DNA of 64,000 nt, taken from IMG/VR virus record IMGVR_UViG_2509601031_000003. The stretch is one strand, 5' to 3'. The position numbers and the translations under genes are program-made. Within the stretch, counting starts at the first letter, position 1; the number at the start of each line of letters is the position of its first letter. Shown piece by piece: positions 539 through 63,569 of this stretch. The notes beneath the pieces are model-generated. The model was not told the origin of the DNA. It made no database searches and worked only from the letters and a program-made list of their open reading frames with translations. This DNA is from a virus.

Positions 539-561
539 AAATCGGACAGGCTGTCCGTTTT
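539..561. repeat. 23-bp palindrome copy 1
   Basis: AAATCGGACA-GGC-TGTCCGTTTT; overlaps portal stop. Confidence 0.95.
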
Positions 562-1999
562 AGACGGGGACTTTGATTTGATTGCGGACAGAACGAAGCT
601 CGACTGCTGCATCCCACAGCCGCCGAAAATCTTGATCTGATACTCCGTCTGACATTCTGAGATTGAGTGTGAGCAGTGCCGCATCGATCGCGGGTAAGTC
701 CTCCACCGATGGATCTCTCAGGATCAGCGAAGCATTAAGCAGCGCCTGCTCTGTTGGAGTCGGTTGAGACGATTGCTGCATCTGCTCAAACCCTGTTACA
801 AACCAATCGCCCCAAGCAATATCAAAGTACTGCCCATCAGATATGTAAAAATCCCATCCTTTTTTGAGGACGATTTCAACGCTAACCGACCATTTAATCT
901 GCTCTGAAAGGTGCGATCGCAGATTGGCAATCATACGGGCGTAAGCAAGTGCGGGCTGATTCGCAATCTCCTTGCCTGAGTTTGACTCTAACCCCAGCCC
1001 AGGGAACAGATAGTGCGGCAATCCCGGCGGGAGCATTTGATAGCGCAGGCTCAAATAGTAATCAACTAAAGGCTTAAGAACATTCACCCCGCTCATTGCT
1101 TTGCGGACATCTGCCCCGCTCAGCAGATAGAGATTCGTAACAATTCCATCATTCAAAAGTGACTCATGGCGCTGCTGATACTGCTCTCGGTAACGCTCAT
1201 CTTTATCGGGCGGCATGACGTGAAGCCACGGCGCGATCGCAACTTCTCGCGCCGCGTCTTCGAGATCTGGCGAAGCCGCCTTAATCTTGCGCCACGGTTC
1301 TGAGCTTTGGAAGCTAATCGGATTGCCATAGAGCCGATCTTTCTCGTAAGAGAACTGAAGCATTTTAACGGGGTGAATTAAACGATCTGTATCGCTCGGC
1401 GTTATTCTCTCCTGCTGGCGGTACATCCCAGGCTCCTCATGCTCGTCTTCATCGACAAACATCGAGAGCGAGGGTAGATAGAGCGATCTTGAAATTCCCC
1501 AGTCGTTCGGCCCGATCCCTTCCCGCTCGATCGCAAATTCTAAAAAGCCGTCCCCATAGCTCATCATGTCCCGCGCGGCCCGCTGTAAGCGATCTCCGCC
1601 AAGAACTAAGGTTTTCCCATTCCGCCGAGCAGCTATATCTCGCCCGATCGCAATCACATCCGGGTGGACCTTCCGCCCGTCTTCTAACGTCTCAGCAATT
1701 CGCCATGAAGCGGATCGCCCGTCGATTTGCTGAAAGCAGTCTCGCGACAGAATTGAAATCGAGTGGCGCATCTCATAGCTCCACGTCCGCATTTCAACTA
1801 ATTCTTGGGAAATACTCAAATCACCATAAATCGGGCGAATTGGTTGCTCTGGTAGCGGCAGAGTTGATCGCCTGCGCTGCCGATTGCCGATCGGGTACTG
1901 TGATCCTTGCAGCGAACTGTTATCCGCTGATGTGAGTGTGCCTGCCGTAAAGAAGCTCCACAGGCGTTGAATAAGGTTGCGTCTAGTGGGTGTTGCCAT
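560..1999 (-). CDS. Phage portal protein
   Basis: 479 aa; MMSYGDGFLE and LYGNPISFQS segments resemble portal motifs; downstream of terminase in the same orientation. Confidence 0.65.
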   Translation of the reverse strand: MATPTRRNLIQRLWSFFTAGTLTSADNSSLQGSQYPIGNRQRRRSTLPLPEQPIRPIYGDLSISQELVEMRTWSYEMRHSISILSRDCFQQIDGRSASWRIAETLEDGRKVHPDVIAIGRDIAARRNGKTLVLGGDRLQRAARDMMSYGDGFLEFAIEREGIGPNDWGISRSLYLPSLSMFVDEDEHEEPGMYRQQERITPSDTDRLIHPVKMLQFSYEKDRLYGNPISFQSSEPWRKIKAASPDLEDAAREVAIAPWLHVMPPDKDERYREQYQQRHESLLNDGIVTNLYLLSGADVRKAMSGVNVLKPLVDYYLSLRYQMLPPGLPHYLFPGLGLESNSGKEIANQPALAYARMIANLRSHLSEQIKWSVSVEIVLKKGWDFYISDGQYFDIAWGDWFVTGFEQMQQSSQPTPTEQALLNASLILRDPSVEDLPAIDAALLTLNLRMSDGVSDQDFRRLWDAAVELRSVRNQIKVPV

Positions 2000-2139
2000 C
2001 CCAGTATTTTGAGTTGGGATAATGAGATCGCATCTCTAACGCCCGTTGCAAAGATTTTTACAAAATTTCAGCCGCAACTGAAATTTCTTGGACGGATTTG
2101 GGTTTGATAGCAAAAGGCGAGATCGTGGAGCAAACACAA

Positions 2140-2349
2140 ATGATCAGTTTTGTTCGCAATCTAATCTACTCAGTTCAAGTTGATCGCGAGTTCCAGCAGC
2201 TCGTAGAGTCGCAGCCCCAAGAAACCCAAGAGCGTCTTCGCATTCAGAATCAACTCATTCGGCAGGGTTACACGATCGTAGAAGCTCAGCATGCCTACGA
2301 TGAAATGATGGGCAATGGAAAAATCTGGCAGTACTGGGCGGAAGACTAG
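2140..2349 (+). CDS. Hypothetical protein
   Basis: Small ORF opposite to the packaging operon, converging on the XRE gene. Confidence 0.35.
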   Translation: MISFVRNLIYSVQVDREFQQLVESQPQETQERLRIQNQLIRQGYTIVEAQHAYDEMMGNGKIWQYWAED

Positions 2350-2705
2350 CTTGCAACCTGACCACCGAGCAGGCATGAAACGATCATCCTTTGCCGATGT
2401 GCGATCGACGATTGCAATTCCGAAACCTTCCCCTGATACTCTTCGATCCGCTTCAAATCCGCCTCAATGCTGGCTAGCTCCGCGAGTACTTTCTGATTAA
2501 AGTCGGGGTCGATTTCAACCGGAGAAACAGAAAGGCTTTTCGCTACCTGAGCAATCGTGTAGCTACTGCACCTCGTTTTCCCCTGCTCTAATCGGCTGAG
2601 GGTAGAGGCATTAACAAAGGCGCTACCACCTAAGCGGCGGAGTGATAGACCCTGCTGAATCCGAAGCTCTTTAATGCGAGAACCGGGGAGTTGACTACGC
2701 TGCAT
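2346..2705 (-). CDS. XRE-family HTH regulator with coiled-coil tail
   Basis: RIKELRIQQGLSLRRLGGSAFVNASTLSRLEQGK is a typical XRE HTH. Confidence 0.8.
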   Translation of the reverse strand: MQRSQLPGSRIKELRIQQGLSLRRLGGSAFVNASTLSRLEQGKTRCSSYTIAQVAKSLSVSPVEIDPDFNQKVLAELASIEADLKRIEEYQGKVSELQSSIAHRQRMIVSCLLGGQVAS

Positions 2706-3429
2706 AAGATCGCGGTCTGTACTGGTGAAAGAAGGTGAGTAGATTGTCGAGCTGAATACTGCCAGTCGTTCGCTGGTTTTCCAAATTTAGCAGGAGTACC
2801 GGATTTTGATACTCGACTTCGTATTCTCCATCCACCTTACGCCGCTTAACACCGTTTCCTGCGTCTGTTTGAGTCAGGATCAGAACCTGCCCGAACATCT
2901 GTTTAATCCGAATTACCTCGGCCTCTTCACTCGTAAAATCGAACCCCGCCCAGTAATCAATTTGAATTGCAGGAGTTTGGGGCCGCTGTGTGGGCCGGGT
3001 GCGACGTGGGCTTGAAGAATAAATCCCCGCTGGCGCGGCTGAGTAAAGCGAGGGCTGTAGTAACCCGTACCCTAAAATCTGCAGTTCCCCCGTCTTAGAA
3101 TCAATCTCAGCTTGTTCAGGATCAAGGTCAACCCACCCAGCAACAGGCGCGTCTAGGCTGTAGCTCGGCAGTGTTCCGCCTCGAATCTTGACGCGGATCG
3201 GAGTCTCTTCAGCGATCGGTAAAATCGGCAGGTTTGCGAGGTACGCTCTGCCGTCACCGGAGAGATTTAGTGTTTCAGTAAACTTTGTAGGACTCAGAGG
3301 GCGATTCGCGCCAAGGACGCTTTCGATTAAGAACTGTGTTGAGACGATCGCGCTTTCGAGCGCCGCCCCGTATAGGCTCAGCGCAGGCGCGTAGGTTAAT
3401 GCTTCCGATGCTTCAATAATTGTTTTCAC
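2695..3429 (-). CDS. Putative head-tail connector/adaptor
   Basis: GTG start chosen; IQIDYWAGF...IKQMFGQVL...VKRRKVDGEYEVEY resembles gp6/gp15-type adaptor C-termini; lies in head module. Confidence 0.45.
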   Translation of the reverse strand: MKTIIEASEALTYAPALSLYGAALESAIVSTQFLIESVLGANRPLSPTKFTETLNLSGDGRAYLANLPILPIAEETPIRVKIRGGTLPSYSLDAPVAGWVDLDPEQAEIDSKTGELQILGYGLLQPSLYSAAPAGIYSSSPRRTRPTQRPQTPAIQIDYWAGFDFTSEEAEVIRIKQMFGQVLILTQTDAGNGVKRRKVDGEYEVEYQNPVLLLNLENQRTTGSIQLDNLLTFFHQYRPRSYAA

Positions 3430-3503
3430 AAGCTTCGCTGTCCTGCTCTCAAGTATTGCGCTGTGGCGCAAGCAATGGAATTCATATTACTCGCGGAAGC
3501 TTG

Positions 3504-3526
3504 AAATCGGTCACGCTGTCCGATTT
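3504..3526. repeat. 23-bp palindrome copy 2
   Basis: AAATCGGTCA-CGC-TGTCCGATTT. Confidence 0.95.
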
Positions 3527-3794
3527 GGGAAGATCAGCGATCATAGCTTTCACCGTTACTTCCCAAAGTACAGCAGGAACCCATTACGCCAGCTTTTACA
3601 GGGGCTTCCAAAGTAGCCACTAAGCGGTACAAGCCCAACGATTCCCCACCCCAAAAACTTGCCGCCGTCACTTTCATCACTTTGTACGCGGCACAGGCGG
3701 ATGAACAGCCATTGCAAGACATAGAAGTTTAGAAAATGCATCACGTTACGCTTACCTCAAAAAAGCTCGAATACCCCGTGAATCAAGAATCGCC

Positions 3795-4124
3795 TTAGAC
3801 GAATAACGTAAACCTTGCAAACCAAAGATAAGACCGATCGCTCCTAATCCAAAGCTCAGGCTCTTCTAACAAGAACTCATGGCCAGAGTCAGCCTTAATC
3901 CTGATGGGGGATAGCGCCTTGATTTCGCTCTCTAACTGAAGCCTGTCAGAAGTGTAACCGCCCATTGCTGGCAGCGCCTGCTTAGGATCAAAAGTGAGAG
4001 TGAATTTTGTCTCCGCCGAGGCATCAGCATCGCACAAAAGCAGGAAATCTTTAATAATCTGCTTGCGATCGTCGGGAACCGCCGCGTCACTAAACTCAAC
4101 TTCTCTAATCTCGACGTAAGCCAT
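3795..4124 (-). CDS. Hypothetical phage protein
   Basis: 109-aa ORF, co-oriented with head module. Confidence 0.5.
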   Translation of the reverse strand: MAYVEIREVEFSDAAVPDDRKQIIKDFLLLCDADASAETKFTLTFDPKQALPAMGGYTSDRLQLESEIKALSPIRIKADSGHEFLLEEPELWIRSDRSYLWFARFTLFV

Positions 4125-4131
4125 AATTTCT

Positions 4132-4467
4132 CTAGTAAATCAGCAATCGGTGAGGAAAGCCCGGAAGCGTAGGGCTAAGAGTATTCTCGAAGATAAGCGC
4201 CCTAACTCGAACATCTATCGATCTATCCTCTATCGCATTCCGATCTCGCTCAACCCGCTCTTTGTTAATTGCTAGGCAAATCTGATCGAGGGTTGGCAAC
4301 TCACTCCAGACTCCTAAAGTTACTCGATTAATGTGGTCATAAAGCTCGGCTTTTTGAATCACTGGAAGTTGCCTTCTGACCTCAGTTAGATGTCGATCGT
4401 AGTTTTCGGCAATCTCGATCACACTTTCCCCGCTAAACAGGACAGTGAGTTTAATTTCTTGACTCAT
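4132..4467 (-). CDS. Hypothetical phage protein
   Basis: Likely start MSQEIKL at 4467; the longer track ORF reads through a 23-bp repeat. Confidence 0.45.
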   Translation of the reverse strand: MSQEIKLTVLFSGESVIEIAENYDRHLTEVRRQLPVIQKAELYDHINRVTLGVWSELPTLDQICLAINKERVERDRNAIEDRSIDVRVRALIFENTLSPTLPGFPHRLLIY

Positions 4468-4501: not shown

Positions 4502-4524
4502 AAGTCGGACAGCGTGACCGATTT
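4502..4524. repeat. 23-bp palindrome copy 3
   Basis: AAGTCGGACA-GCG-TGACCGATTT. Confidence 0.9.
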
Positions 4525-5396: not shown

Positions 5397-5419
5397 AAAT
5401 CGGTCAGCGTGACCGATTT
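5397..5419. repeat. 23-bp palindrome copy 4
   Basis: AAATCGGTCA-GCG-TGACCGATTT; contains terL stop. Confidence 0.95.
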
Positions 5420-8010: not shown

Positions 8011-8283
8011 ATGACAACTAAGCAACAGCAACTTTTAGACTTACAAATCAGCATCGCTCGTGAAGAATGCCAAAAGCAATTACGGGAACTCGTCAAAGAC
8101 GCAGTAGTTGAACCGGTTGAAAACGGCTTTGTGGTTCACAACTATCGCGATCGTAAAAAAGGAAAACCTAAAGATGCTTGGATTCCAAGTGCTCAAACAT
8201 TGATTAGTCAGGATTTCTGGGTATGTCACCCCTTCCCTGAGAATCTTTACCAGTTTGTAGGCGAATGGCTTAAAGAGAATTGA
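8011..8283 (+). CDS. Hypothetical protein
   Basis: AGGAG RBS upstream; 90 aa. Confidence 0.55.
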   Translation: MTTKQQQLLDLQISIAREECQKQLRELVKDAVVEPVENGFVVHNYRDRKKGKPKDAWIPSAQTLISQDFWVCHPFPENLYQFVGEWLKEN

Positions 8284-8305
8284 AATCGGACAGGCTGACC
8301 GTTTT
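8283..8305. repeat. 23-bp palindrome copy 5
   Basis: AAATCGGACA-GGC-TGACCGTTTT; overlaps stop 8283. Confidence 0.95.
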
Positions 8306-8894: not shown

Positions 8895-10670
8895 AACCTT
8901 AACTTGGTTCGCAAAATTGCCAGCAGGTTTAGCAGTGAGGCTGAGACGTTTGATGATTTTGTAAGTATTGGGACGATCGGCTTAATGAAAGCTGTCGAGC
9001 GATTCGATGAATCGAAAGGGTTTGCGTTTAGTACCTTTGCAGTCCCGTACATCAAAGGCGAAATCCTCCACTACATCAGAAGCGCTAAAGGAGAGTTGAT
9101 CCGACATCGCCGAGGTGAACGACGGCAATATATTCAGAGCCTTGATGCTCCGCTTAGCTCGGATTCAGAAACAACTCGACTAGACATCGTTGCTGACGAT
9201 CTTATTGTTGTAGAACCCGATGACGAGCAAGTTCAACTCAAGGCAATTCTGAATCAATTAACTTACCCGTCACGTGAAGTCCTTCTCCTAACTCAATTAA
9301 ACGGACTCCGAAAGAAAGAAGCTGCTGCATGGTTTGAAGTTGATCCGACGACAATTCAGCGCTGGTTAAGCAAAGCACAGGTCGAAATTGAAGCAGCCAA
9401 ACAAGATCATCGGTTCAAGACTCAGACCTACAAGCGAGAGCGTAATGCACTGCCTTATCGTGACGACATTAGCAAAGAACTTGTGTTCCCTGAATTCAAA
9501 TCACGCTGTCAGGTTTGCGATCGCATATTTGCGCTCTGGAAGAAACCAAGTCGCATTCCCCAAACCTGCTCTAGTGTTTGCGCCCGCAAGCTCTCTGCAC
9601 AAGCGAATTCTATAAACATATGGAGCGATGCCGAACTAGATTTTCTTAAATCAAGAATCGGCAAGATGCCCACAGCAAAAATCTATGAGTCATTCCACGT
9701 CGCGGCTGCTCACCACGGATGGACAGATCGCACTGATGTTGCTCTAAAAGTTAAAATTACGCGCCTTGCAAAATCCGTGAAGTGTGTTGATGACGGATGG
9801 AGCATGACCGATCTCGCTAAACGGTTAGATGTCCCAGTAGATCGTATTCGTGTCTGGAAAAAGCGCGGACTCAAAACAGAGATGGTTGCGCGAGGCATAA
9901 CAGGTCAATGTGTCATTTATCGAGTTGCGCTACATGAATTCTGCACTGAGCATTTTTGGCGGTTCTCAGGCATTGATATCGATAGGTTGAGCGAGATTTT
10001 AGGAGATCGCGCTCTTGCTGAGAAATGCGCGGCTCAACCCCTGAAAAAGAAGCGTGTTGAGGTACAAGATCTTAGATCGAAGAAGATTTACCGGAGTGCC
10101 CGCGAAGCTGCGAGAGTATTAGGGGTTGAACGTCAGTTTGTGCTGCGTGAGATTAAGCGAGAGGAGAACGCACTGCTTAAACAAAGCCACGTCGAAACGA
10201 TTGGTCATTCTGAGCTTGTTCCATCGATCGATGAACTGAAAAGGCGAACCTCGCTGATTGATCCATCTCTACCAATGAAAGTGCGCGTGTTCCGTTCTCC
10301 TGACGGCAAACTATACGAAACCAATAATCTCAACTGGTTTGCACAGGTACATGGTTTACAATCTCCTTTACTGTCATCGCTTGCAAACGGGTTTCAGGAT
10401 TCTCATCTCGGTTGGACACGTCCTTTTGGTTCCTATCAACTGCGGCTAATTACTCCATCCAAACGAGAGGATGTGGTGGTGCAGGAAGGTACAACAATTT
10501 TTGATCTAAATGATCCGGGTGATCGGCTGCGAGCTTATCTTACTCCAGATGAAGGGATGCAAGTTTTCGTGATGCCAGAAAGTACGATCTTGAAAGATCC
10601 CGAAACCAAGCTACGGGAATACGCGAAGCTGCACAGACTTGAAATTATTTGTTGCAAAAAGAGAGGCTGA
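8850..10670 (+). CDS. Sigma-70 family factor fused to Zn-finger, HTH and NUMOD-like DNA-binding modules
   Basis: Region 2 NLNLVRKIA...GTIGLMKAVERFDESKGFAFSTFAVPYIKGEILHYIR; region 4 HTH; then CQVC..CSSVC, WSDAELDFLK, MTDLAKRLDV..IRVWKKRG, YRSAREAARVLGV. Confidence 0.85.
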   Translation: MTTQTRREIQRIAEQNLNLVRKIASRFSSEAETFDDFVSIGTIGLMKAVERFDESKGFAFSTFAVPYIKGEILHYIRSAKGELIRHRRGERRQYIQSLDAPLSSDSETTRLDIVADDLIVVEPDDEQVQLKAILNQLTYPSREVLLLTQLNGLRKKEAAAWFEVDPTTIQRWLSKAQVEIEAAKQDHRFKTQTYKRERNALPYRDDISKELVFPEFKSRCQVCDRIFALWKKPSRIPQTCSSVCARKLSAQANSINIWSDAELDFLKSRIGKMPTAKIYESFHVAAAHHGWTDRTDVALKVKITRLAKSVKCVDDGWSMTDLAKRLDVPVDRIRVWKKRGLKTEMVARGITGQCVIYRVALHEFCTEHFWRFSGIDIDRLSEILGDRALAEKCAAQPLKKKRVEVQDLRSKKIYRSAREAARVLGVERQFVLREIKREENALLKQSHVETIGHSELVPSIDELKRRTSLIDPSLPMKVRVFRSPDGKLYETNNLNWFAQVHGLQSPLLSSLANGFQDSHLGWTRPFGSYQLRLITPSKREDVVVQEGTTIFDLNDPGDRLRAYLTPDEGMQVFVMPESTILKDPETKLREYAKLHRLEIICCKKRG

Positions 10671-10692
10671 AATCGGTCACGCTGTCTGATTT
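10670..10692. repeat. 23-bp palindrome copy 6
   Basis: AAATCGGTCA-CGC-TGTCTGATTT; overlaps both convergent stops. Confidence 0.93.
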
Positions 10693-12681: not shown

Positions 12682-13302
12682 ATGGCTATTCGAGAATTCT
12701 TTAAAGACGAAATCCACTGGCGCGATCGCACGGGTAAACTCCGCATTATTGAGGGTCTGTCTCTGCCCAACCGACTGCGGTTTTTAGAATACCGGGCGAT
12801 CGCTTGGGGCATCATTCAAGCCAGCCCCGATTTACCAGGGTCAGTGCTGTATGACTCGAACCGTGAGTTTCGCGATCGCGCAAATTCAATGCTGTTACTT
12901 GCAGGCGTTGATCCGGAGTGGTGCAACTGGGAATTACTCGAAGGACTGCTATTTCGGCATGAGGGCAATGATGGTCTGATTGTTCAGATGGAGTTTCCCG
13001 CCACTGATCCAGAAGCAAAAATTGTCGAAGATCCCTCGAATCAGTATCACCGCGCGATCGCGGCTTTGATGCTGCTAGAGATGGACTTTGCCAAAGCGAA
13101 ACAAACTGTTGATTCAACCCCGTGGAATGAATTGCAGGGCGTTTTAGAGCAATTCTCAGCAATGCGATCTGGAAAGCCGAAACAGGCAGAAATCAAAGAT
13201 GAAGATGTCCTGAAAGCCTGGGGAATGACCAGACCAACCGAGCAGCAAGCAGAACCCATTACCTCATTCGAGCAGATGGGATTTCAAGAAATCACAATTT
13301 GA
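12682..13302 (+). CDS. Putative tail assembly chaperone
   Basis: Follows tail tube; paralogous to 14110-14460. Confidence 0.45.
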   Translation: MAIREFFKDEIHWRDRTGKLRIIEGLSLPNRLRFLEYRAIAWGIIQASPDLPGSVLYDSNREFRDRANSMLLLAGVDPEWCNWELLEGLLFRHEGNDGLIVQMEFPATDPEAKIVEDPSNQYHRAIAALMLLEMDFAKAKQTVDSTPWNELQGVLEQFSAMRSGKPKQAEIKDEDVLKAWGMTRPTEQQAEPITSFEQMGFQEITI

Positions 13303-13324
13303 AAACGGACACGCTGTCCGATTT
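13302..13324. repeat. 23-bp palindrome copy 7
   Basis: AAAACGGACA-CGC-TGTCCGATTT; overlaps stop 13302. Confidence 0.95.
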
Positions 13325-14465: not shown

Positions 14466-17400
14466 ATGGCAGTTTCAGAAGAAATTTTCGAGTTTAAGAC
14501 CACTGGCTTAGGCGACATCATTAGCGCTTACCGCCAGATTGAGCAGGCTCAGAAATCAATTGAAACTGCCACAAAGCAGGCGACCGCAGTACTAGAGCGG
14601 CAGGAAGCGGCAATCTCGCAATTAGTTCGAGGCGGGCAGGAACTAACAAGGTCGAACAGCGCAGTTACACGATCGCTCAAAGATGTCCAGTCTGGATTAT
14701 CTGACCAGCTTGCGCTTGAACGCCAACTGGCCCAACAAATTCGAGCCACGAATGGAGCCTACCGCGATCGCTCTGCCGCGTCAAACAATCCTGATCCGCT
14801 CGGAATTAGCGGGGCATTGACTGATTCGATTACCAGCTCGATTCAAAAGGGCTTTGAGAATCTAAAGCAGGGCAACATCTTAGGGACACTGGGCAATATT
14901 GCCGCCGCGCCGTTTAGCGCGATCGGATCAGTAGCCTCGACTGCTCTATCAGGGATTGGGTTTGGTCTAGTTCAGTCGATTACGAACCCAATCGGTGCTA
15001 AGTTCGGGCAGGGGTTATCGAACGCTTTAGAAAACTCACTTTCTCAGAGTGTGGGGAGTTCTGAACTACTGGCTGAGAAAGTAGGAGGCGCGATCGGATC
15101 AGCGATTACGGGCGCGGTTTCATCTCGGCTGCAAGGACTGCCGGATATTCTTGAGGCGCAAATTGCCAAAATTGACGACAAAGAACTTCGTAAAAAACTA
15201 GAGAACGTCTTAGCGCAAGTTCGGGAAGCGCCGGGGCAGTTACGGCAAAGTGTCACCGATACGATCGGGCAAGACAACATTTTGCGAGAAGGGCTTGCGG
15301 TGCGCGGCACTCAGCAGCAATCACGCGAAGCTCGAACCCCGCAAATTCGGGAGCAGGCGGTACAAGAATGGCGGCAAGCTATCGAGCAATTAAGCCGCAT
15401 CGAAACCGCCGCAACTCAAAGACTCGCTGCGCTAGAACAGCAGATTCAAGAGCGCCAGTCTGAATTTAATCAGGCGCAGAAACGCTATCAGAAAATCAAT
15501 CAGAAACTAGATGAGGCGCAGAAGTCCGGGCAGTCAACCGAGGCAATTAGCGCGATCGCAGAAGATCTGAGATTTGCCGGGGCTGATTTACAAAGCCTCT
15601 CGCAGACGATTACCGCGCTGTCTAAGTCTCGTCAAATTGCAACTCGCGCAGTTGAGGAGGCGCGCCAAGCGAGTATCACAGCGAGGGGACGCGTTGAGCA
15701 GGTTTTACCAGAGCGACAATCCCAAGCGTTTCTAGATGTTGCTCAAGCCACGCTTGGAAACATTAACCCTGAAAAGCTTCCCCGCTTAGTCGTGAATGAT
15801 GCGTTACTGAAGCGCGAGAACGCAGCGTCACTCTACCAACCTGCGCTAAACGCGATCGTTGTTACTGGGGAGATGTTTGAGGCGATTCAAAAAAATAGCC
15901 TCACCGAAAAACAGATCCGGGTCTTATCCGAGGAACTCGCGCACGCTCAAGATTTTGACTTTGGCTCAGCCCGTGGAATTGATGCGGCAAGACAAAACCG
16001 TGTCGTTACAGAGCGTCAGGTGCAGGCGACTCAGCAAGAGCTTTCACAGATTGCGCCTGAGCTAGGAAGATACGCGGCGGAGCGGCGCGCAGTAGAACTT
16101 AACGCAAAAGTTCAGGCGAGTCGCGGAACTGAGCGGGTCTTGCAGCAACGTCAACAACAGCAGAATTTACAGGCAATCACCGATATTGCTGCGCAGCAAG
16201 ATATCGCGCCCGTAAAACAGCAGTTTTTGACCGCGATTAAACTTCTACAAAGAACCGCGGCGGAGCAAGGAGCAGACTTAGGGCAAACAATCGCTCAGTA
16301 CATCCAAATCTACGAACAGCAATTCTCAAAAGTTCGCGCAGTTTCAGAAAAAGCAGCTCAGCAGGCGGGAACCGCAACTGAGGCGGAGATCGCCCAGTTG
16401 CAGGCGGAGTTACAGCAGGCGAACACCGCCGTCAAAGCCGTCATCACTTCGATTATCGGCAAAATCGAGAAACTAAAAACCCCAGAACCCCTACAAATCC
16501 CTCTCGATCTCAAACAGAATGAGCGCGAACTTGTCCCAGTTGAGCCTCGCGCCCAGGCGGAGAAACGCACTCTCAGACAAGATCAGCCCACAATTCGAGA
16601 GCGGGCTGCATCCGTTGCGGAAGGGGCCGGGCAAGCTGCTCGCGCCGTAGCGGAGGGAGCGCAGAAAACCGTCTCTACAATTCGTCAGGTCGGGGAAACG
16701 CTTCAAGCTCCAGCAGCGGCTTTAGCTCAGGGCGCGGGGGCAGCGGCCAAGGCGACAGTTGCGATCGCGAAAACAGGGTACAAAGTCGCGGAAGCGATGG
16801 AAGGCTTGGCGCTGGATATTATCCCCGCTGGTCGCACCATTAAATCAGTCGGTAAAAATGTCGCCCTTCCCGCCGCCGCATTCGGAGCGGCAACCGCTCT
16901 TTTACCCGGCGGCGCTGCAACAGTCGGAGCAGCTACACAACTTGCATCATCCGCGCTAGTTCCGCTCGGAAACGCAGCAAGTGCGTCTGCCGCAAGTGCG
17001 ATCGCGGGAGCAGTGCCGAATGTTCTCGGATTACAAGGCGCGATCGCGGGATCTGTTACCGCCGGGATTGATGTTGCCGTTGCAGGCGCATCCGTGGTTT
17101 TAGCAAAAACAGGTGTAGCTGTAGTGGGCGGGCGCACTGTTGCCGCTCTTGCAGGGCGAACAGCGCGAGTGATTACCGACGCGGTAAGTGATGCGATCGA
17201 CAAAGCGGCGGTCGCAACTGATGCGGTTAAGGTCAAAGCTGATACCGCAGAATCAAGAGTGCAGAACCGCGGGGCGATTGATGTCGCCGCAACCTCTGTT
17301 CAAACCGGACAGGCTGACCGAATTGAGCCGAAAGCAACTCGCCGAGAAATTGACGGCGCGATCGCACAAGCGAAGAAGTTAGACCAAGAATTTGCCGCAG

Positions 17401-23400: not shown

Positions 23401-23423
23401 ACTTGCAACGGAAAGGGTTTTGA
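14466..23423 (+). CDS. Tail tape measure protein (2985 aa)
   Basis: TP901-type core FDQQLRTFGVVSQAS...LAKQGF...VADLLTQASNAS; Ala/Gln coiled coils; C-terminal DGGSVQAGQPYLVGEEGPEL. Confidence 0.92.
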   Translation: MAVSEEIFEFKTTGLGDIISAYRQIEQAQKSIETATKQATAVLERQEAAISQLVRGGQELTRSNSAVTRSLKDVQSGLSDQLALERQLAQQIRATNGAYRDRSAASNNPDPLGISGALTDSITSSIQKGFENLKQGNILGTLGNIAAAPFSAIGSVASTALSGIGFGLVQSITNPIGAKFGQGLSNALENSLSQSVGSSELLAEKVGGAIGSAITGAVSSRLQGLPDILEAQIAKIDDKELRKKLENVLAQVREAPGQLRQSVTDTIGQDNILREGLAVRGTQQQSREARTPQIREQAVQEWRQAIEQLSRIETAATQRLAALEQQIQERQSEFNQAQKRYQKINQKLDEAQKSGQSTEAISAIAEDLRFAGADLQSLSQTITALSKSRQIATRAVEEARQASITARGRVEQVLPERQSQAFLDVAQATLGNINPEKLPRLVVNDALLKRENAASLYQPALNAIVVTGEMFEAIQKNSLTEKQIRVLSEELAHAQDFDFGSARGIDAARQNRVVTERQVQATQQELSQIAPELGRYAAERRAVELNAKVQASRGTERVLQQRQQQQNLQAITDIAAQQDIAPVKQQFLTAIKLLQRTAAEQGADLGQTIAQYIQIYEQQFSKVRAVSEKAAQQAGTATEAEIAQLQAELQQANTAVKAVITSIIGKIEKLKTPEPLQIPLDLKQNERELVPVEPRAQAEKRTLRQDQPTIRERAASVAEGAGQAARAVAEGAQKTVSTIRQVGETLQAPAAALAQGAGAAAKATVAIAKTGYKVAEAMEGLALDIIPAGRTIKSVGKNVALPAAAFGAATALLPGGAATVGAATQLASSALVPLGNAASASAASAIAGAVPNVLGLQGAIAGSVTAGIDVAVAGASVVLAKTGVAVVGGRTVAALAGRTARVITDAVSDAIDKAAVATDAVKVKADTAESRVQNRGAIDVAATSVQTGQADRIEPKATRREIDGAIAQAKKLDQEFAAAYQKLKEAIKSGDARLVNAYEETIQKLALNAKRDIDGLIEQLKSAGDNSGAIGQLGGVKGRLSRKEGLVAKEVGKFRKEQAARGEDLNAQALDLSVGLGNLDEGLLVLKRAAARTADALNSAIASFAEIEKQSKLSDTVRNAAQTPKVQAVAKDLAVNTAGFAASSLAANQGSVAGLAADAIGALAARTAINTLSPLAQAYIELRKSVEFREKSNAEKIDAIRNLVEKYRVSEKQQADELFGDIAGFGVGNLAAQLPIPVPLKGAIAASAAVPKLQALRDRISAQTRQPDIARGEDLNAQALDPGQVFSSIDGKRRRLLETLELQLSIAIDKLQDRFRKVGDTPELDENLVNAAVNNYTKLIDKLTKAKVDQIDRIDEQLFKRFIEATQKQITSTQGVIDRQTTRGTGGVDVTSVLDDLVQKESQDLIRQNQENLRKAQRQAFENERKGLAAVEGDLALLRVDDPVEGQSLVRQLKLFYGRLTADIQENVRKRLDSLLTESQTLGADIGTSQAVFTQRGDTAQAQKLGQVQQRLSAAQSEAQQILIKPRVEVTDKDLNRLKDLEREIRDVYKAVNLPPPPGGGFLGGIGEDAALSGGKLSGIAGLGAAAVGLGAGQFAQQALGATARQATETFKEFANFDQQLRTFGVVSQASQEQVGKLRAEVDRLAGSTTFGNKEIAAASINLAKQGFNADQTTKALKGVTLSASASGESLETTAQVIGVALNQFQLNATESTKVADLLTQASNASATGTAQIGESLKYVGGQAKASGQSIEETITVLALMAASGLDASSAGTGLAEALKRINLASASATTEMEELKSRGSKQAIAAFQLLNQEVRGADGKLLPFTQVLQKLKANLQNFPKPEQELILSALFGVQGSRAVLSVIGQTDEKIKSTIGTMQEFQGASEKAATALTQGAQGAIEKFTGGLEKVRIQAGETAAIAFVPLLNAASALIDGFTSLPAPVQQIVIAVGGLGTSITAATIAIAAFNIANNSIIGTAVRSAAALVADTAATVTSAVATKSLTSAKTALAIATGTATQAQLASAAAFGKMALSAGLAVAAVAAVAAVADTYSSIRSGAEDAVKGQEKLTEALRVYNLENGKTKPPKNTVTPQTEQQGVEQAGKELNPFQQGLDAVRGGLRDLTGIQAISTAAQERYNNKLVEFGDLLTQSDSIIRTVQDSQRKLAALQKKVAEGTATPEEQKQLNAEIERNKELVNAAVESVKGAKAPNAQLEAIQKNQLETLKGLSESLDKAGQSTQKGTVAIQGQTKANKDLVDSIKDRLDLGELTQQQALAELEAVQANTKNSLDQRQKAKAAIDKIRKDEVEGAKKAQEEQLKSRQSAIEAEITAIQAGQAQIEAQQIAGNLSEAEADKQLTALKVQEIQKRIEAARAVQELGTDEERQKAVSEEIKLQAEIAKVQAEARKREQERRLKDILEANAKVEAAIKQSQTARITATREAELAALRQGGANREQIERDTQKQIAAIQLEGTSQELDAKKNALAQIQKARAAGTVDQKAAADQEKQLINEISQLNLQRLDAEKAALQALIAERVRGIEVELQRAKLPLEAQAAGLGNVNTLLQQQSNLLAAQQGLESAISNLRLQRLNYALEDAKAAGKSADAAAIQASIFAEQNAQLELQYQQKLAQLELSEKIKANELEIAKLQADIAVLDAKAAVQKAEAEGKSREEIAALQQQLDLKQKIQSLSQKAIDNQSEINAQAREQLAVEQQAARERQSREQQKAAQEAQKASISQGGGGSAGGGSVKRAFNLSGEQVGQYDRAGQAFSQILANNQARDDQQIALLRQLTSGALGSNEKAFLSARAEDAGFKGVSELAQQLQKIDPFKLDATIRKTQEAGGNVIEALQALTKGADEASGKLGGLPSLKARRDGGSVQAGQPYLVGEEGPELITPTRSGWVHTAPETSRLLSGFMPRDIAASHSLPVATVGDKSLLKEMQRMNGFIESLANRASYPRTLVVQSEAAPISSAAKVWSDISKHNLQRKGF
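17302..17324. repeat. 23-bp palindrome copy 8 (inside tape measure)
   Basis: AAACCGGACA-GGC-TGACCGAATT. Confidence 0.8.
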
Positions 23424-23445
23424 TTTCGGACACGCTGACCGATTT
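23423..23445. repeat. 23-bp palindrome copy 9
   Basis: ATTTCGGACA-CGC-TGACCGATTT; exactly fills gap between convergent stops. Confidence 0.95.
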
Positions 23446-25205: not shown

Positions 25206-25228
25206 AATTCGGACAGCGTGTCCGATTT
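25206..25228. repeat. 23-bp palindrome copy 10
   Basis: AATTCGGACA-GCG-TGTCCGATTT. Confidence 0.95.
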
Positions 25229-27616: not shown

Positions 27617-27640
27617 CGGAGTTAGTTTTTAGTCTTTGAA
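27430..27640 (+). ncRNA. Candidate omega-RNA overlapping tnpB 3' end
   Basis: By analogy to TnpB systems; low-complexity protein tail after the last conserved motif; putative right end ...TTAACGG at 27619; boundaries approximate. Confidence 0.35.
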
Positions 27641-27661
27641 ATCGGACACGCTGTCCGTTTT
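27639..27661. repeat. 23-bp palindrome copy 11
   Basis: AAATCGGACA-CGC-TGTCCGTTTT; between tnpB and tail gene. Confidence 0.95.
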
Positions 27662-33571: not shown

Positions 33572-33594
33572 AAATCGGTCAGCCTGTCCGAAAT
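33572..33594. repeat. 23-bp palindrome copy 12
   Basis: AAATCGGTCA-GCC-TGTCCGAAAT; right after terminator. Confidence 0.93.
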
Positions 33595-34881: not shown

Positions 34882-34904
34882 AAATCGGTCAAGCTGACCG
34901 ATTT
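34882..34904. repeat. 23-bp palindrome copy 13
   Basis: AAATCGGTCA-AGC-TGACCGATTT; contains stop 34889. Confidence 0.93.
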
Positions 34905-35256: not shown

Positions 35257-35279
35257 AAATCGGTCACGCTGACCGATTT
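35257..35279. repeat. 23-bp palindrome copy 14
   Basis: AAATCGGTCA-CGC-TGACCGATTT. Confidence 0.95.
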
Positions 35280-38199: not shown

Positions 38200-38563
38200 T
38201 GCATTTCTCCTGTAGTTGGTTGATTTGATACCCCTGAACAATCGAAGCGAGTGCAGCAAGCGCGGCTGTTCCTGTTACTGCTACCAATGCCAAGCAGCAG
38301 TAAGACTTCAAAGAAGCGATCGCTGATCTCAGCTCGGAAATCGTTTTTTCGGATTCCGCCTTCTGCTGCTGTCTCAGCTTACTGAGTCCGTTGAGATGCT
38401 CAATGATTTGAGCATTGGACTCAGTAAGTGTTTGAATCTGCGTTTCGTGGTCGATGATTGCAGCTTCAATTGAAAAGTCATGCAAGGACGATCGCGGCTG
38501 ATTCAAATCGGTCGGGCTGTCCGGTTTGCGGTTGGTTGGTTTGGCGTAGGACCTCATAGCCAC
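38159..38563 (-). CDS. Coiled-coil + TM protein
   Basis: Coiled coil then YCCLALVAVTGTAALAALASIV. Confidence 0.55.
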   Translation of the reverse strand: MAMRSYAKPTNRKPDSPTDLNQPRSSLHDFSIEAAIIDHETQIQTLTESNAQIIEHLNGLSKLRQQQKAESEKTISELRSAIASLKSYCCLALVAVTGTAALAALASIVQGYQINQLQEKCNARQSLPAQTRKN

Positions 38564-40644: not shown

Positions 40645-40667
40645 AAATCGGACAGCGTGACCGTTTT
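40645..40667. repeat. 23-bp palindrome copy 16
   Basis: AAATCGGACA-GCG-TGACCGTTTT; half-site TAACGGTCACGC just upstream. Confidence 0.95.
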
Positions 40668-46209: not shown

Positions 46210-46383
46210 TCAGCATTTTTGTTTCAAATCGGACACGCTGTCCGTTTTCAAAATCCTTCTGGGTATCCACCACAGCCTGCTTTCGTCCGGGAATTCGCAG
46301 AGAACAATAGCCGTTCCTAACTCTTTGACGATCGCCCGTCTGCCAGATGGGGTTATCACGTGATCGCCGATGCTAAGCTGCAT
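46210..46383 (-). CDS. 57-aa KOW/SH3-like protein
   Basis: Manual translation MQLSIGDHVITPSGRRAIVKELG...KTDSVSDLKQKC. Confidence 0.5.
   Translation of the reverse strand: MQLSIGDHVITPSGRRAIVKELGTAIVLCEFPDESRLWWIPRRILKTDSVSDLKQKC
46226..46248. repeat. 23-bp palindrome copy 17
   Basis: AAATCGGACA-CGC-TGTCCGTTTT. Confidence 0.95.
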
Positions 46384-49597: not shown

Positions 49598-49620
49598 ATT
49601 TCGGACACGCTGTCCGATTT
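49598..49620. repeat. 23-bp palindrome copy 18
   Basis: ATTTCGGACA-CGC-TGTCCGATTT. Confidence 0.95.
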
Positions 49621-54969: not shown

Positions 54970-54992
54970 AAATCGGTCACGCTGTCCGATTT
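54970..54992. repeat. 23-bp palindrome copy 19
   Basis: AAATCGGTCA-CGC-TGTCCGATTT. Confidence 0.95.
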
Positions 54993-57532: not shown

Positions 57533-58293
57533 GCCGTACTGACGAACTTCTGCAAGCGATTCTTGATGAACTGCGATCGCGCAATCAACTCCTCGGCTTC
57601 CACGCCCCATTCAAGAAAAAGGTGATTTATGCCAACCGAAGTTACACAGACTGTCTCTGGTACTTTTTCGATGGCGCAAGCAAAACTCACATCCCTATCG
57701 AGCATCACGCTCTGACCGGAATTATCGAAAAACTCGAAATCGAAGAGAAAGAATTTCGCGGCAAACCTGATTACAAGGTGAACCTACACATCCGCGCCGA
57801 CCGCGCTTATGTCATTCAATCGGGGCATGACACCCTTTTTGCCCGTGGCTTAGTCTTTATGCTCTCAAAGCTCCCAGTCGCTGCATTTCGACAGCCAATT
57901 ACAATTGCTGTCGAAGCTGGAGATACAGAACAAGTCCTGTTCTGCCGTATCTACAATCCTGCAACGGGCGAAGCCGTGTTTGCACCGTATCCGGATCAGG
58001 TCAACTGGGAACAAGTGACCGCAGTGGCGATCGACAAAATCCAACGCGCCCACGAAACCGAGAGTCAAACCCACGAAGCGCCTGAGCAGCCTGAGCCTGA
58101 GAAGTTGGATTTATCGGATGCGATCGCCGCCATTCCCGTTGAGATGGAGCGCATCGGCTGGACGAAGAAACAGGGATCAGAATATTTGCAAACCAAGTAC
58201 GACAAAAAGACTCGCGCTGAGCTGGATGATCAGGAGATGTTCGAGTTTTTAAGACATCTGAGATCGTTGCCAACTCGAACTAAGGTTGCTTGA
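57529..58293 (+). CDS. Hypothetical protein
   Basis: 254 aa; C-terminal WTKKQGSEYLQTKY.KKTRAELDD helical module. Confidence 0.6.
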   Translation: MSRTDELLQAILDELRSRNQLLGFHAPFKKKVIYANRSYTDCLWYFFDGASKTHIPIEHHALTGIIEKLEIEEKEFRGKPDYKVNLHIRADRAYVIQSGHDTLFARGLVFMLSKLPVAAFRQPITIAVEAGDTEQVLFCRIYNPATGEAVFAPYPDQVNWEQVTAVAIDKIQRAHETESQTHEAPEQPEPEKLDLSDAIAAIPVEMERIGWTKKQGSEYLQTKYDKKTRAELDDQEMFEFLRHLRSLPTRTKVA

Positions 58294-58315
58294 AATCGGT
58301 CAGCCTGTCCGAAAT
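58293..58315. repeat. 23-bp palindrome copy 20
   Basis: AAATCGGTCA-GCC-TGTCCGAAAT; overlaps both convergent stops. Confidence 0.93.
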
Positions 58316-60980: not shown

Positions 60981-61361
60981 GTGTCTAACTCTCTACCAGT
61001 TGAGTACTACGATTGCGTTGCTAATGAACTGCCCCGATCCGGAAGATTGCACCTTTCGGTACTTAGATTGATTTCGTTTCTTCCCATTAAGCACGAGATC
61101 CTATGGGGTGCTCGATGGGCATTTTGCTCAACCGACGTGCCCGATCCTCAAACCGAAATTACCTATCCTGGCTCGGCCGTAATTTGTCAGCCGGAAAACT
61201 TTCTTGAGTTGCAGAAATTAGTGATGGGGTTACAGGCTATCACCGGATTTGGAGTGGTGATTATCAAAGGTTCAGAGGGGAAGTGGCATATCTCTTACTC
61301 GCCGATTGAGCAGAGATGGTCTTACAAGTTTACGGAGAATGGATCATGCCAGAGAGGTTAG
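60981..61361 (+). CDS. Hypothetical protein
   Basis: GAGG before GTG. Confidence 0.5.
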   Translation: MSNSLPVEYYDCVANELPRSGRLHLSVLRLISFLPIKHEILWGARWAFCSTDVPDPQTEITYPGSAVICQPENFLELQKLVMGLQAITGFGVVIIKGSEGKWHISYSPIEQRWSYKFTENGSCQRG

Positions 61362-62224
61362 ATCCCAAAATCGTCGATCGCGCATTTCAATTCATCGAAC
61401 AAAAGCCCGGACTCTTCCCCTCACGACTGCGCGTCCTACTTGGATTAAAGCTCGTAAGAAACAGGACGCGGAAGAGTGGCTATCGGTACTCTAGCCTGCT
61501 CTGGATCATCATCAAACTGTTGCAGTCTCAAGGAAAGATTGAGGTCGTCAAAGATCCACTACATGACGAACCTCTGTTGTATACCAGGGGCACGGCTCCC
61601 CCGCCAAAACCCCTATTTCAGCCGAGTCGCCGCCAAGAACCAGATTGCAAAGTTTTCAAAGTTCCGCTCGATCAACTTTACCTCTACACAAAACCTGAGC
61701 CTATGACAACTCCAACGCAAGCCACACAAAAGACGATCGACCAAATTGGGAGCGCGATCGCTGAACTTCAACTATTAGGTCAGCCCTTCACGGTTGCGCG
61801 CGTCCTCGAAGTAGCGCGGGTTCACAGCTCTTTCTTAAAGAGATATCCCGAAGTTAAGCAGGACGTTGAAATCGCCGTTCGTCAGAGCGGTACAGAGTTG
61901 AAGCGAGAGAAAACGGACAGCGTGTCCGATTTGGATGAAGCTGAAGCCTTGGACGAAGTTGAGCAACTCAGACAAACGATCTCCGAGCTAGAGGAACGAA
62001 ACCGCGAGCTACGACAACAGTTGAGCGGCGAAGGAGTTGACCTAGTAGCAGTTATATCGAACCAGAAATCTCAGGTTGAGGCGCAATTGAAGTCGCTGCA
62101 AGCTGAAGCTGAGGTGCTGAGTAATCAGCTTAGCAAGGCAAAGCAAAAGCTCGCTGCCCTTGACCAAATCTTGTCCATCCTCCCTCAAACCCAAAATGCC
62201 GAACCCGTTATCACTCAGAGATGA
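61346..62224 (+). CDS. Putative DNA-binding coiled-coil protein
   Basis: FTVARVLEVARVHSSFLKRYPEV HTH-like segment then long coiled coil. Confidence 0.55.
   Translation: MPERLDPKIVDRAFQFIEQKPGLFPSRLRVLLGLKLVRNRTRKSGYRYSSLLWIIIKLLQSQGKIEVVKDPLHDEPLLYTRGTAPPPKPLFQPSRRQEPDCKVFKVPLDQLYLYTKPEPMTTPTQATQKTIDQIGSAIAELQLLGQPFTVARVLEVARVHSSFLKRYPEVKQDVEIAVRQSGTELKREKTDSVSDLDEAEALDEVEQLRQTISELEERNRELRQQLSGEGVDLVAVISNQKSQVEAQLKSLQAEAEVLSNQLSKAKQKLAALDQILSILPQTQNAEPVITQR
61910..61932. repeat. 23-bp palindrome copy 21 (intragenic)
   Basis: AAAACGGACA-GCG-TGTCCGATTT. Confidence 0.92.
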
Positions 62225-63569
62225 GCGCATTGAGATCTCCCCTGTAGAGACATTACAGTCTACTGTGAGCACTTCCTCGATCGAAGATAGAGCAGTCGAA
62301 CTCAATGCTGAGTTAGACCAAACCGAAGCAACCTTTATCCAAGCCGGTAAAGCTGCTTTATCGCTCTATAAGCTACTCGGTGAGACGCTGACCCAGATCA
62401 AGGCTACTAAGCAGCATGGCGAATGGGGGAAGTGGCTTGCGTCGAAGTCAATTAATGAACGACGAGATCGACGGGCGCGGCAGATTGCGGCAAACTGGGA
62501 ACGCCTCGAAGCGATTTCGGACAGCGTGACCGATTTGACTCTGACCGATGCACTCGAACTACTCAAAAAACCGCTCCCTGAAGCCGAGGAGCCAGAACTA
62601 TCATTTGATGAAGTTCGTGAATCGTTTGCCCCGTGGGGAAGTTTTGAGCGAACCGATAGCAGTCGGTTTAAATACGTCCTCAACCGTCCCGGCGGCGCGC
62701 ATTTCTTCCGGGGGTTGAATGAGGCAAGTAAATGGCGTGAGGAGCATTGCCACGAGGGGAACAGACTAGACGCGGTTAAGCCTGCGACAGGTGAACTTAC
62801 AACATCCCCGTTTGTGCCTGAAATTGTGTCTCGCGCAGAATCAATCAAATCCGAAAGCCTCAAGCTTGGAGATCGCACAACGATTGACGATCGCGAATGT
62901 GTTGTTACCGAACTGCTCGAAACTGGTGACGTTGGTGTTACTGCACTTGACGGTAGCGCTGACCAAATCTACGTCAAAGCGGATGGTACAGCTACAAATG
63001 CCTTTGAAGTTGCGAGTCGATTACCTGAGACTCCCTCGGTTCGGGAACGCATGACCAGCGCTAAGACCGACGAGCATTACACGCCGCCAGAATTGCTGGA
63101 ACTCGTCTATGAGTGTTTCTCCCCGCTCGGTATTGAGCTTGATCCATGTAGTAATGCTCATGGTGAAGAAGCCAATGTGAAAGCGAGTCAGTACTTCACG
63201 ATCGAAGATGATGGCTTGGCTCAAGAATGGAATGCCAAAACGGTTTATATCAATCCCCCATACTCAGATGTCGCCGCATGGGTAGATAAGGTTGTTACTG
63301 AGCAAGATCGGAACAATATTGGAGATGTCTTGCTTCTGGTCAAAGCCGATACCTCTACCCAATGGTTTGCACAAATCTGGGAAAGCGCGACTGCGGTTTG
63401 CTTTCTCAAGAAACGAGTACGCTTCATCAATGCCGAGTCAGAAGGAAATGCAGCCCCCTTTGCTTCAGCGATCGCGTATTTTGGCTCAGAAATCGACAGG
63501 TTTTACTATGCCTTCGAGTCCGCTGGCTCGGTCGTTCAGTTGCTTAATCCAGAAATGTTTGGTTCCTAA
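62196..63569 (+). CDS. DNA N6-adenine methyltransferase (phage Dam-type) with DUF3102-like N-terminus
   Basis: DEHYTPPEL, LDPCS, DGLAQEW, YINPPYS, RVRF; N-terminal KHGEWGKWL...ARQIAANW. Confidence 0.88.
   Translation: MPNPLSLRDERIEISPVETLQSTVSTSSIEDRAVELNAELDQTEATFIQAGKAALSLYKLLGETLTQIKATKQHGEWGKWLASKSINERRDRRARQIAANWERLEAISDSVTDLTLTDALELLKKPLPEAEEPELSFDEVRESFAPWGSFERTDSSRFKYVLNRPGGAHFFRGLNEASKWREEHCHEGNRLDAVKPATGELTTSPFVPEIVSRAESIKSESLKLGDRTTIDDRECVVTELLETGDVGVTALDGSADQIYVKADGTATNAFEVASRLPETPSVRERMTSAKTDEHYTPPELLELVYECFSPLGIELDPCSNAHGEEANVKASQYFTIEDDGLAQEWNAKTVYINPPYSDVAAWVDKVVTEQDRNNIGDVLLLVKADTSTQWFAQIWESATAVCFLKKRVRFINAESEGNAAPFASAIAYFGSEIDRFYYAFESAGSVVQLLNPEMFGS
62514..62536. repeat. 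23-bp palindrome copy 22 (intragenic)
   Basis: ATTTCGGACA-GCG-TGACCGATTT. Confidence 0.92.

Follow-up and report, generated by a model that had tools for sequence, protein, structure and literature searches.

The 64,000-nucleotide stretch analysed here (IMG/VR virus record IMGVR_UViG_2509601031_000003; the window, with positions counted from its first nucleotide and negative to its left) corresponds to C1:4768651–4832650 of a cyanobacterial genome of 7.26 Mb in five replicons, and is part of an integrated prophage. The left edge of the prophage is marked by the host S1 ribosomal-protein gene, which ends at −8192, and its right side holds a gene for an XisA/XisC-like recombinase (71297–72433), so that the element spans approximately 80.7 kb. 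Dispersed along it are copies of a 23-bp palindrome, one of which lies in frame within a gene (62196..63569, plus strand) encoding a helix-turn-helix DUF3102 domain fused to a Dam-type N6-adenine methyltransferase, hereafter DUF3102-Dam. Comparison across related sequences suggests that the palindromes are, on balance, probably the cognate sites of the DUF3102 domain of this phage-encoded enzyme.

The original prediction had listed 22 copies in the window, all of which match AAATCGGWCANNNTGWCCGWTTT with 0–2 mismatches when up to three are allowed, against a chance expectation of 0.03 matches in dinucleotide-preserving shuffles of the window. A weight matrix derived from these 22 sites was run over the complete 7.26-Mb genome and returned 25 sites at 28–39 bits, all within C1:4760773–4834036 (−7877, the first site, to 65386), with three of them just beyond the window ends. 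All 25 sites thus fall within approximately 73 kb of one prophage of approximately 80 kb, with the remaining 7.2 Mb free of them; the highest scores reached elsewhere were 21.8 and 18.0 bits, and no site was present on any of the four smaller replicons. The host-wide density expected of a repetitive extragenic palindromic (REP)-like repeat, for which such a genome-wide scan had been proposed, was not seen, and because the sites are confined to the prophage, a host-wide repeat of this kind is excluded.

Across the 25 sites, positions 1, 5–7 (CGG), 9 (C), 12–15 (GCTG, oriented), 17, 19 and 23 are invariant. Only A or T occurs at positions 8 and 16, whereas the central position 11 is C in 17 sites, G in seven and A in one. 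Conservation around the sites stops at approximately 25 bp. The centre, read as NGC or GCN, gives each site an orientation that is distributed 17:8 and is independent of gene strand; at tandem junctions, the top-strand orientation is found in four of five rightward and in seven of seven leftward cases. The centre was rejected as a polarity signal, as the 17:8 ratio is not significant and is unrelated to gene strand.

The sites are enriched at gene 3′ ends, as had been proposed: 13 of the 25 sites have their centre no more than 25 nt from a 3′ end, compared with 1.7 for random positions (2000 draws, maximum 7). Two centres lie near a start codon, and five to seven sites are well inside open reading frames (ORFs), where 19 would be expected. 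When junctions were counted between ORFs of at least 60 amino acids, a site was present at 7 of 14 convergent, 10 of 85 tandem and 0 of 14 divergent junctions (convergent versus tandem, Fisher p 0.002). The sites are spaced about 3 kb apart, at intervals whose coefficient of variation is 0.55, compared with 0.96–0.99 for random positions or randomly picked junctions (p ~0.0006).

The four sites originally described as lying on or between two convergent stop codons (5397, 10670, 23423 and 58293) do lie there, and the same holds for 539, 8283 and 40645. At several of these junctions, both genes terminate within the palindrome, which supplies TGA on either strand. Site 539..561 (centre GGC, no mismatches) abuts the stop of gene 560–1999(−). 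Site 5397..5419 covers the end of a plus-strand gene at 5412 and that of the large terminase gene (5404–6696, minus strand) at 5404, and the first base of site 8283..8305 is the final stop-codon base of gene 8011–8283. Site 10670..10692 falls on the stop codon of a gene for a sigma factor fused to extra helix-turn-helix (HTH) modules (8850–10670), and site 23423..23445 is at that of a tape-measure-like ORF of 2985 amino acids. Sites 40645..40667 and 58293..58315 occupy the other two of these seven junctions, the latter directly on the two stops.

Among the tandem junctions, site 3504..3526 separates two leftward genes and has the arms GGTCA and GGACA, which are non-complementary at the W position, while site 13302..13324 fills a rightward junction between a stop at 13302 and the next start at 13330. 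Site 27639..27661 follows a TnpB-like gene. Four further sites lie between leftward genes, namely 34882..34904, which adjoins the M23 peptidase gene and is the sole copy with the centre AGC; 35257..35279, with perfect arms; 46226..46248, upstream of a histidine-kinase gene; and 49598..49620. Site 54970..54992 occupies a rightward junction. Site 4502..4524 is at the 5′ edge of ORF 4132–4545(−), seven codons from the called start, and may be intergenic. Hairpins with HIP1 (GCGATCGC) arms are found at approximately 49550–49597 and 54925–54969, right beside sites 49598 and 54970; they are conserved in a related metagenome contig (L260, below) and are host-type palindromes distinct from the 23-bp site.

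Within the window, five copies are located well inside ORFs, in agreement with the number given originally. Site 17302..17324 is read within the tape-measure-like ORF as QTGQADRIE, site 25206..25228 within ORF 25108–25584 in the third frame as IRTACPIS, and site 33572..33594 within the weak ORF 33476–33775 as KSVSLSEI. The other two, 61910..61932 and 62514..62536, are in frame in two neighbouring genes and encode KTDSVSDL and ISDSVTDL, respectively; the former appears intergenic only by a crude gene call and is actually in frame in gene 61316–62224. A further copy, 38505..38527, occupies the last 16 codons of ORF 38478–39050(−) and is the weakest in the window (30.2 bits). The intragenic copies at −4632, 17302 and 38505 are read in the same alternative frame and yield the near-identical peptide TGQ[AP]DR[FI]E in three unrelated ORFs, as would be expected if ready-made copies had been inserted into tolerant loops.

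The DUF3102-Dam gene encodes 457 residues from the ATG at 62196, or 469 if the open frame is taken from 62160. A search of Pfam with the 469-residue product returned Dam (PF05869, E 1.4e-23), at 63057..63449 on the plus strand (residues 300–430), and DUF3102 (PF11300, E 3e-4); these were the only two domains found, and no ParB N-terminal (Srx-like CTPase) domain was among them. The family assignment is reinforced by a hidden Markov model (HMM) of 203 DUF3102 ORFs from which the window protein was left out (E 4.9e-16) and by phrog_15609 (E 1.3e-5), and the AFDB clusters of predicted folds that match the domain are named DUF3102 (probability 1.00). The same HMM places the Arg–Arg pair of the predicted reading helix ERRDRRAR (codons 62457..62480, plus strand; Arg104 and Arg105 in P0001 numbering) at both specificity residues described below. 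Site 62514 starts 11 codons past this helix, and lies in the same alignment column as the site in 20 other genes, which is the self-site position of the family. No further copy was found inside the gene by the weight-matrix scan, so that it holds a single palindrome. Directly upstream is the DUF6262-like gene (61316–62224), which encodes 302 amino acids with an HTH-like stretch and a coiled coil; each of the two neighbours holds one in-frame site, that of the DUF6262-like gene falling in a linker, and this layout is kept in L260.

DUF3102 is a large family found in phages, plasmids and chromosomes, and is without a published function. In the literature searched, its three mentions are all incidental, with no functional treatment found, and a literature search for a protein that binds a palindrome in its own coding sequence yielded nothing usable.

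The link between the palindrome and this family emerged from DNA patterns as well as from proteins. A scan of viral and genome collections for the pattern yielded numerous single near-identical palindromes of the form AAATCGGACAC[C/G]GTGTCCGATTT in unrelated contigs, their number being a minimum; among the matches listed in genome contigs, most were single copies, and many lay inside DUF3102 genes. In 21 unrelated contigs found by the DNA pattern alone, the palindrome is in frame in a DUF3102-like gene, directly follows an ERTARRYM-like motif and encodes K[ST]D..[ST][DV][LF]. Relatives were also sampled blind to the motif, with a profile in 401 genomes of the cyanobacterial phylum, to which the window belongs, with upstream peptide patterns in viral contigs and in metagenome contigs, and with the PF11300 profile in two other bacterial groups, where 9 of 552 genomes were positive. 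A palindrome with at least 10 arm matches, no more than 40 codons past the helix, was present in 128 of the 203 DUF3102 ORFs sampled by protein; for the first 100 loci, the count was 58, and among 500 control windows drawn from these loci it was 12.

The palindromes vary from lineage to lineage (for example, AAATCCGCAAATTTTGCGGATTT, AAATTCGACATAATGTCGAATTT and AAATTTCTCACTGTGAGAAATTT), and nearly all (96/109) retain the AAAT...ATTT frame and the length of 23 bp. They occur in three reading frames (46, 10 and 2 cases), and at one locus (L269) the same DNA site is read as a quite different peptide, EIGHFDRF. In predicted structures, the site-encoded peptide forms a low-confidence linker after a helical bundle. 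The use of three reading frames, the divergent peptide and the linker position together indicate that the constraint acts on the DNA.

The family is joined to at least three types of methylase, namely Dam (window, L168, L308 and L315), an NPPF type (in the provirus G061, below) and phrog_1008 (L264), and by virtue of these varied fusions DUF3102 looks, from its sequences, like a portable site-specific DNA anchor. The host encodes a second, stand-alone DUF3102 protein of 261 amino acids (G000:C1:1961131–1961307, L236), whose gene contains the internal palindrome AAATTCCAAACGGTTGGGAATTT, with no other copy anywhere in the host genome. A tblastn search of cultured phages with the window DUF3102 domain gave no match. 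Among cultured phages, DUF3102 genes whose internal palindrome is perfect are present in Bacillus phage IEBH (gp01, L330; AAATTCCACGACGTCGTGGAATTT) and Streptococcus phage CHPC642 (gp29, L331; CCAAATTCGAGTACGTACTCGAATTTAG), in both cases after cro and ahead of DnaD/DnaC-like helicase-loader genes.

In most DUF3102 genes the internal site is alone, as in the host gene at C1:1961131, in G315 and G013, and in four other Dam fusions; within the flanks examined, this was so at 62 of 66 loci. The idea that multiple sites go with fusion to a methylase was rejected, given that those four Dam fusions carry the internal site only. Where extra copies exist, they match the variant of their own element (three in G062, with centre CCG; four in G453, with CCG[AC]AA; and two in L252). 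The sampled relatives have one to four copies, and the 25 of the window element are far above any of them.

Protein and site covary at specific positions. A scan of 136 protein columns against bases 5–10 of the half-site, with the site-translated columns set aside, ranked columns 79, 76, 75 and 80 as the most informative, and all four belong to the eight-residue helix E-R-T-A-x1-x2-[YF]-M. In an independent-pair test, for which the helix and site columns were removed before the tree was built, Arg at x1 went with G6 in 14 of 14 pairs (p 0.0001) and Arg at x2 with C9 in 13 of 13 (p 0.0002), while the cross-controls (x1 against base 9, x2 against base 6) were not significant. The covariation spans about 70 lineages. 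In the closest pair (L262/L354, tree distance 0.04), the change of x2 from Arg to His is accompanied by a change of base 9 from C to A in both arms. For the window helix, Arg–Arg predicts G6 and C9, which are observed in 25 of 25 sites.

Related elements retain some of the sites and differ in others. The metagenome contig L260, which is part of a Joint Genome Institute (JGI) contig, matches the window from 49.3 to 72.6 kb at 75–85% nucleotide identity and retains five orthologous sites, though the adjoining intergenic DNA has diverged past alignment; changes between the orthologous sites are at positions 4, 8, 16 and 20. Its copy of 49598 is identical, with a flank that is unalignable on one side, and that of 54970 differs only at one W position and in the outer arm. 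One site, that at 58293, is the reverse complement in L260, one (65364) is missing there as a clean indel of approximately 35 bp, and one is extra; a close relative has six copies in 21 kb. Retention of the sites while their flanks diverge argues that the sequence is under selection.

More distantly, a 74-kb IMG/VR provirus (G061) has about 33 proteins in common with the window at 30–63% identity and carries the same 23-mer four times, with one copy 3′ of its homologue of gene 4874–5230, cf. site 5397. Its DUF3102 homologue (L259, G061:C1:68312–70126) is 44% identical, with a conserved middle region and an NPPF-motif methylase. A genome of the same genus as the host (G001, locus L224 on G001:C12) has two direct copies at approximately 15209 and 17288 of a 40-kb stretch, which flank a 2-kb module directly after the homologous end of the tape-measure gene, the place equivalent to that of site 23423. 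These may be orphan sites carried along with an exchanged module. The indels and the inversion relative to L260, together with the G001 pair, indicate that sites come and go as small units. A specific motif of 20 bases cannot be produced 25 times by point mutation, so that new sites must be copied from existing ones, and this turnover leaves room for the sites to act as recombination joints.

If the palindromes are DUF3102 sites, a dimer of the domain would sit on each of them, with each reading helix ERRDRRAR touching one half-site AAATCGGWCA. The first Arg of the pair would set G6 and the second C9, and position 8 would be read loosely as A or T. Like most DUF3102 genes, the gene would keep a single self-site in the part that codes for the linker past the helix, and in this lineage the site would have multiplied to 25 copies placed about 3 kb apart. 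These copies may have settled where insertion harms least or helps most, namely 3′ ends and half of the convergent junctions, while avoiding divergent, promoter-bearing junctions. The original prediction of a phage-wide protein-binding network is accordingly retained in part: comparison supports protein binding over hairpins, and the binder would be the DUF3102 domain instead of the HTH or ribbon-helix-helix proteins or the sigma fusion that had been proposed.

Two purposes of the array were given roughly equal weight, and both are tentative. The sites might be parking pads that hold the methylase on phage DNA at regular intervals, with which the regular spacing is consistent. Just as conceivably, they might act as symmetric protein roadblocks or insulators between gene blocks, which would fit the bias towards convergent junctions and the absence from divergent ones; cyanobacteria, the phylum of the host, are not known to have Rho, which would also fit roadblocks. 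In the RNA runs X13 and X15, which were available as assembled contigs in which transcript ends are not visible, one contig spans sites 3504–10670, and the breaks at approximately 604, 1384–1550, 12634 and 17421, being breaks of contigs and not transcript ends, do not match sites. A combination of both functions, or another role such as DNA compaction, ranks third, and partition is an improbable task for sites on a prophage that is integrated. The most elaborate version, which we consider rather improbable, is that the methylase is stationed where gene blocks end, at intervals of about 3 kb, and that its dimers there would form symmetric, Rho-independent roadblocks whose occupancy could be set by methylation of the two invariant adenines. 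If true, this would amount to a phage-wide epigenetic insulator network built on a DNA-binding family with a readable two-residue code.

Several points weigh against the assignment of the palindromes to DUF3102, for which the support is wholly comparative. The internal palindrome of the G061 homologue is lost, destroyed by a four-codon insertion, and no DUF3102 gene was found in G001 or in a further genome, G005, which carry two copies and one copy of the site, respectively. The window protein itself scores 21.5 bits with the Pfam DUF3102 profile, under the curated cut-off of 24.4, and its helix ERRDRRAR deviates from the family consensus. Fold searches with the complete domain and with the HTH alone found no significant solved DNA-binding protein in the PDB; the SopB–DNA complex (Z 4.1, root-mean-square deviation (rmsd) 5.7 over 66 residues) and P1 ParB (Z 3.6, rmsd 2.4 over 43 residues) appeared as weak matches among many unrelated helical ones. 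As protein and site reside in one gene, shared descent inflates their associations, and restriction to strongly supported branches leaves two and four pairs, all concordant and too few for significance. Nor is the code universal, as IEBH has Arg–Arg yet the half-site TCCACG. Finally, because most DUF3102 genes have the internal site only, the family is silent on the purpose of a 25-copy array.

We judge it unlikely that the binder is another phage protein, either the sigma fusion or an XRE-type immunity repressor, acting in stoperator-like silencing of the prophage, with the copy in the DUF3102-Dam gene an ordinary intragenic site. No protein shared by the window and G061 is better conserved than the sigma fusion (63–65% identity), which has a site on its stop codon, several XRE-type HTH proteins are encoded by the prophage, and the two genomes with sites in which no DUF3102 gene was found would be readily accommodated. 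Against this, G062 and G064 combine a DUF3102 gene with CGGACA-type sites and have no homologue of the sigma fusion, which therefore cannot be the general binder, and the position-specific covariation ties the site to the DUF3102 helix. The sites are, moreover, symmetric, with an orientation that does not follow the direction of transcription, and for these reasons the parallel with L5 stoperators drawn in the original prediction fails.

An account in which the palindromes are selfish or recombinational repeats without a binding function, either REP-like or akin to a miniature inverted-repeat transposable element (MITE), or else joints of module exchange, likewise has little probability, although it captures something of their origin. 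It draws on the copying that 25 instances of the motif demand, on the indel at 65364, the extra site and the inversion at 58293 relative to L260, and on modules framed by sites: the direct copies in G001 flank one, and sites 23423 and 27639 bracket a block that splits the tail operon. Yet conservation ends at ~25 bp, the host chromosome is free of copies although the prophage is integrated in it, and the spacing is more regular than chance. In the run X17, from a diverged relative, the homology breaks (273, 2031, 3429 and 13874) are off the sites, as are the replaced segments 7015–7624 and 10784–10901. A repeat of the REP/RAYT or MITE type was rejected, as there are no copies outside the prophage and, among the proteins scanned, which did not include every ORF, a TnpB-like gene is the only candidate, with no TnpA/RAYT. 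Copying of this kind would explain where the sites come from, not why their exact sequence is retained, and is compatible with binding by DUF3102.

It is very unlikely that the palindromes act as nucleic-acid hairpins, whether as bidirectional terminators, stabilisers of mRNA 3′ ends or single-stranded DNA hairpins in replication or transposition: the AAA-stem-TTT symmetry, the strong bias to gene 3′ ends and convergent junctions, and the joint change of both arms across the DUF3102 family, which keeps base pairing, would suit such a role, but pairing between positions 8 and 16 is seen in 10 sites out of 25, compared with 12.8 expected for independent arms, positions 4 and 20 are also freely mismatched, six or seven copies are inside ORFs, an Rfam scan of the window gave no match, sequence beyond pairing is kept between elements whose proteins are 30–63% identical, and the way in which the arms vary within the family follows two specific helix residues. 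An intrinsic terminator with a G+C-rich stem and a U-run was rejected, as U-tracts are missing (the T-run is of 3–4 bases, and one of eight sites in 1–20000, that at 539, passes a lax terminator scan) and W8/W16 are mismatched in 15 of 25 sites.

The remaining gene content is that of a prophage with cargo. Besides the large terminase gene, the hallmarks include the small terminase gene (6656–7216); a terminase query against G001, G005 and G061 gave no match. The tape-measure-like ORF, with site 17302 inside and 23423 at its stop, and the M23 peptidase gene belong to the prophage as well. The sigma fusion (606 amino acids) combines regions 2 and 4 of the sigma-70 family with approximately 400 amino acids that contain HTH_23, HTH_38 and MerR-like modules, and a related-locus search with it as query returned no relatives. 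The TnpB/Cas12f-like ORF (26102–27616), with weak matches to the TNB domain and to a PHROG transposase, is prophage cargo located in the block between sites 23423 and 27639 within the tail operon. A full-length sensor histidine kinase (dCache, HAMP, HisKA and HATPase; 43829–46108) is likewise cargo.

Known systems offer partial parallels to an array bound by DUF3102. The binding sites of the lambda O protein (ori-lambda) are located inside the gene for O itself, where the linker joining two domains is encoded, and comprise four iterons and an AT-rich region in one place. The window gene resembles lambda O in having a site inside itself, and the DUF3102 genes of cultured phages lie near replication-loader genes; it differs in that only one palindrome is in the gene, with the other 24 spread over the genome, and in the fusion to a methylase. 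A lambda-type initiator with its origin in its own gene was rejected as a candidate, as the gene contains one palindrome and not an array of iterons. In SsoII-type DNA methyltransferases, an N-terminal HTH binds a palindromic operator that is distinct from the methylation target, and the single operator, in the promoter of the restriction-modification operon, is regulatory. DUF3102-Dam would likewise be a methyltransferase with its own HTH domain and predicted palindrome binding, unlike the SsoII type in that no restriction gene, promoter position or homology is shown for it. In B. subtilis, parS lies in spo0J, so that in some ParB systems, too, the site is within the gene of its binder.

KorB–OB, ParB–parS and Noc–NBS are the closest in logic, each pairing an element-encoded HTH protein with at least a dozen dispersed palindromes, many of them off promoters; the OB operators of KorB on the IncP plasmid RK2 are 13-bp palindromes (PMC11790492). 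In contrast to KorB and ParB, the window protein has no ParB/Srx CTPase domain and shows weak similarity to the HTH fold of SopB and P1 ParB, its partner domain is a DNA methylase, and an integrated prophage has no evident partition need. The stoperators of Cluster A mycobacteriophages (L5 gp71 type) resemble the 23-bp sites in that tens of copies of a short site are scattered through the genome of a temperate phage, for the most part at gene boundaries. Stoperators are asymmetric, 13–14 bp long and oriented with transcription, and the phage protein that binds them, as a monomer, halts RNA polymerase during elongation (PMC9283540, PMC6550527). The present sites differ in being dyads of 23 bp that follow no orientation rule, and their proposed binder has not been identified as an immunity repressor. 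Closest in appearance are the 17-bp dyad repeats TGTTCGGNNNCCGAACA of Cluster O mycobacteriophages, with inverted arms, a variable 3-bp centre and a common TCGG...CCGA core, although their arms are shorter. They number more than 30 per genome of approximately 70 kb, about one-third inside ORFs and few at rearrangement points, with no orientation rule; their function and binder are not known, and a dimeric binder was predicted (PMC4351075).

For the DUF3102 family, the comparison yields a concrete and cheaply testable predicted function, namely that of a sequence-specific anchor with its own site in its gene. The code, by which the first residue would set base 6 and the second base 9, predicts a change in specificity upon residue swap, and the genes of phages IEBH and CHPC642 are convenient systems for a binding test. 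The prophage is a favourable test case, with 25 targets in one genome, a host strain present in the sequencing runs of 11 studies, and an anchor fused to an enzyme whose activity is directly readable by long-read methylome sequencing. If the array blocks transcription or directs methylation, it would represent a third kind of phage-wide network of sites, beside stoperators and KorB operators, and might then also explain the dyad repeats of other phages, such as those of Cluster O.

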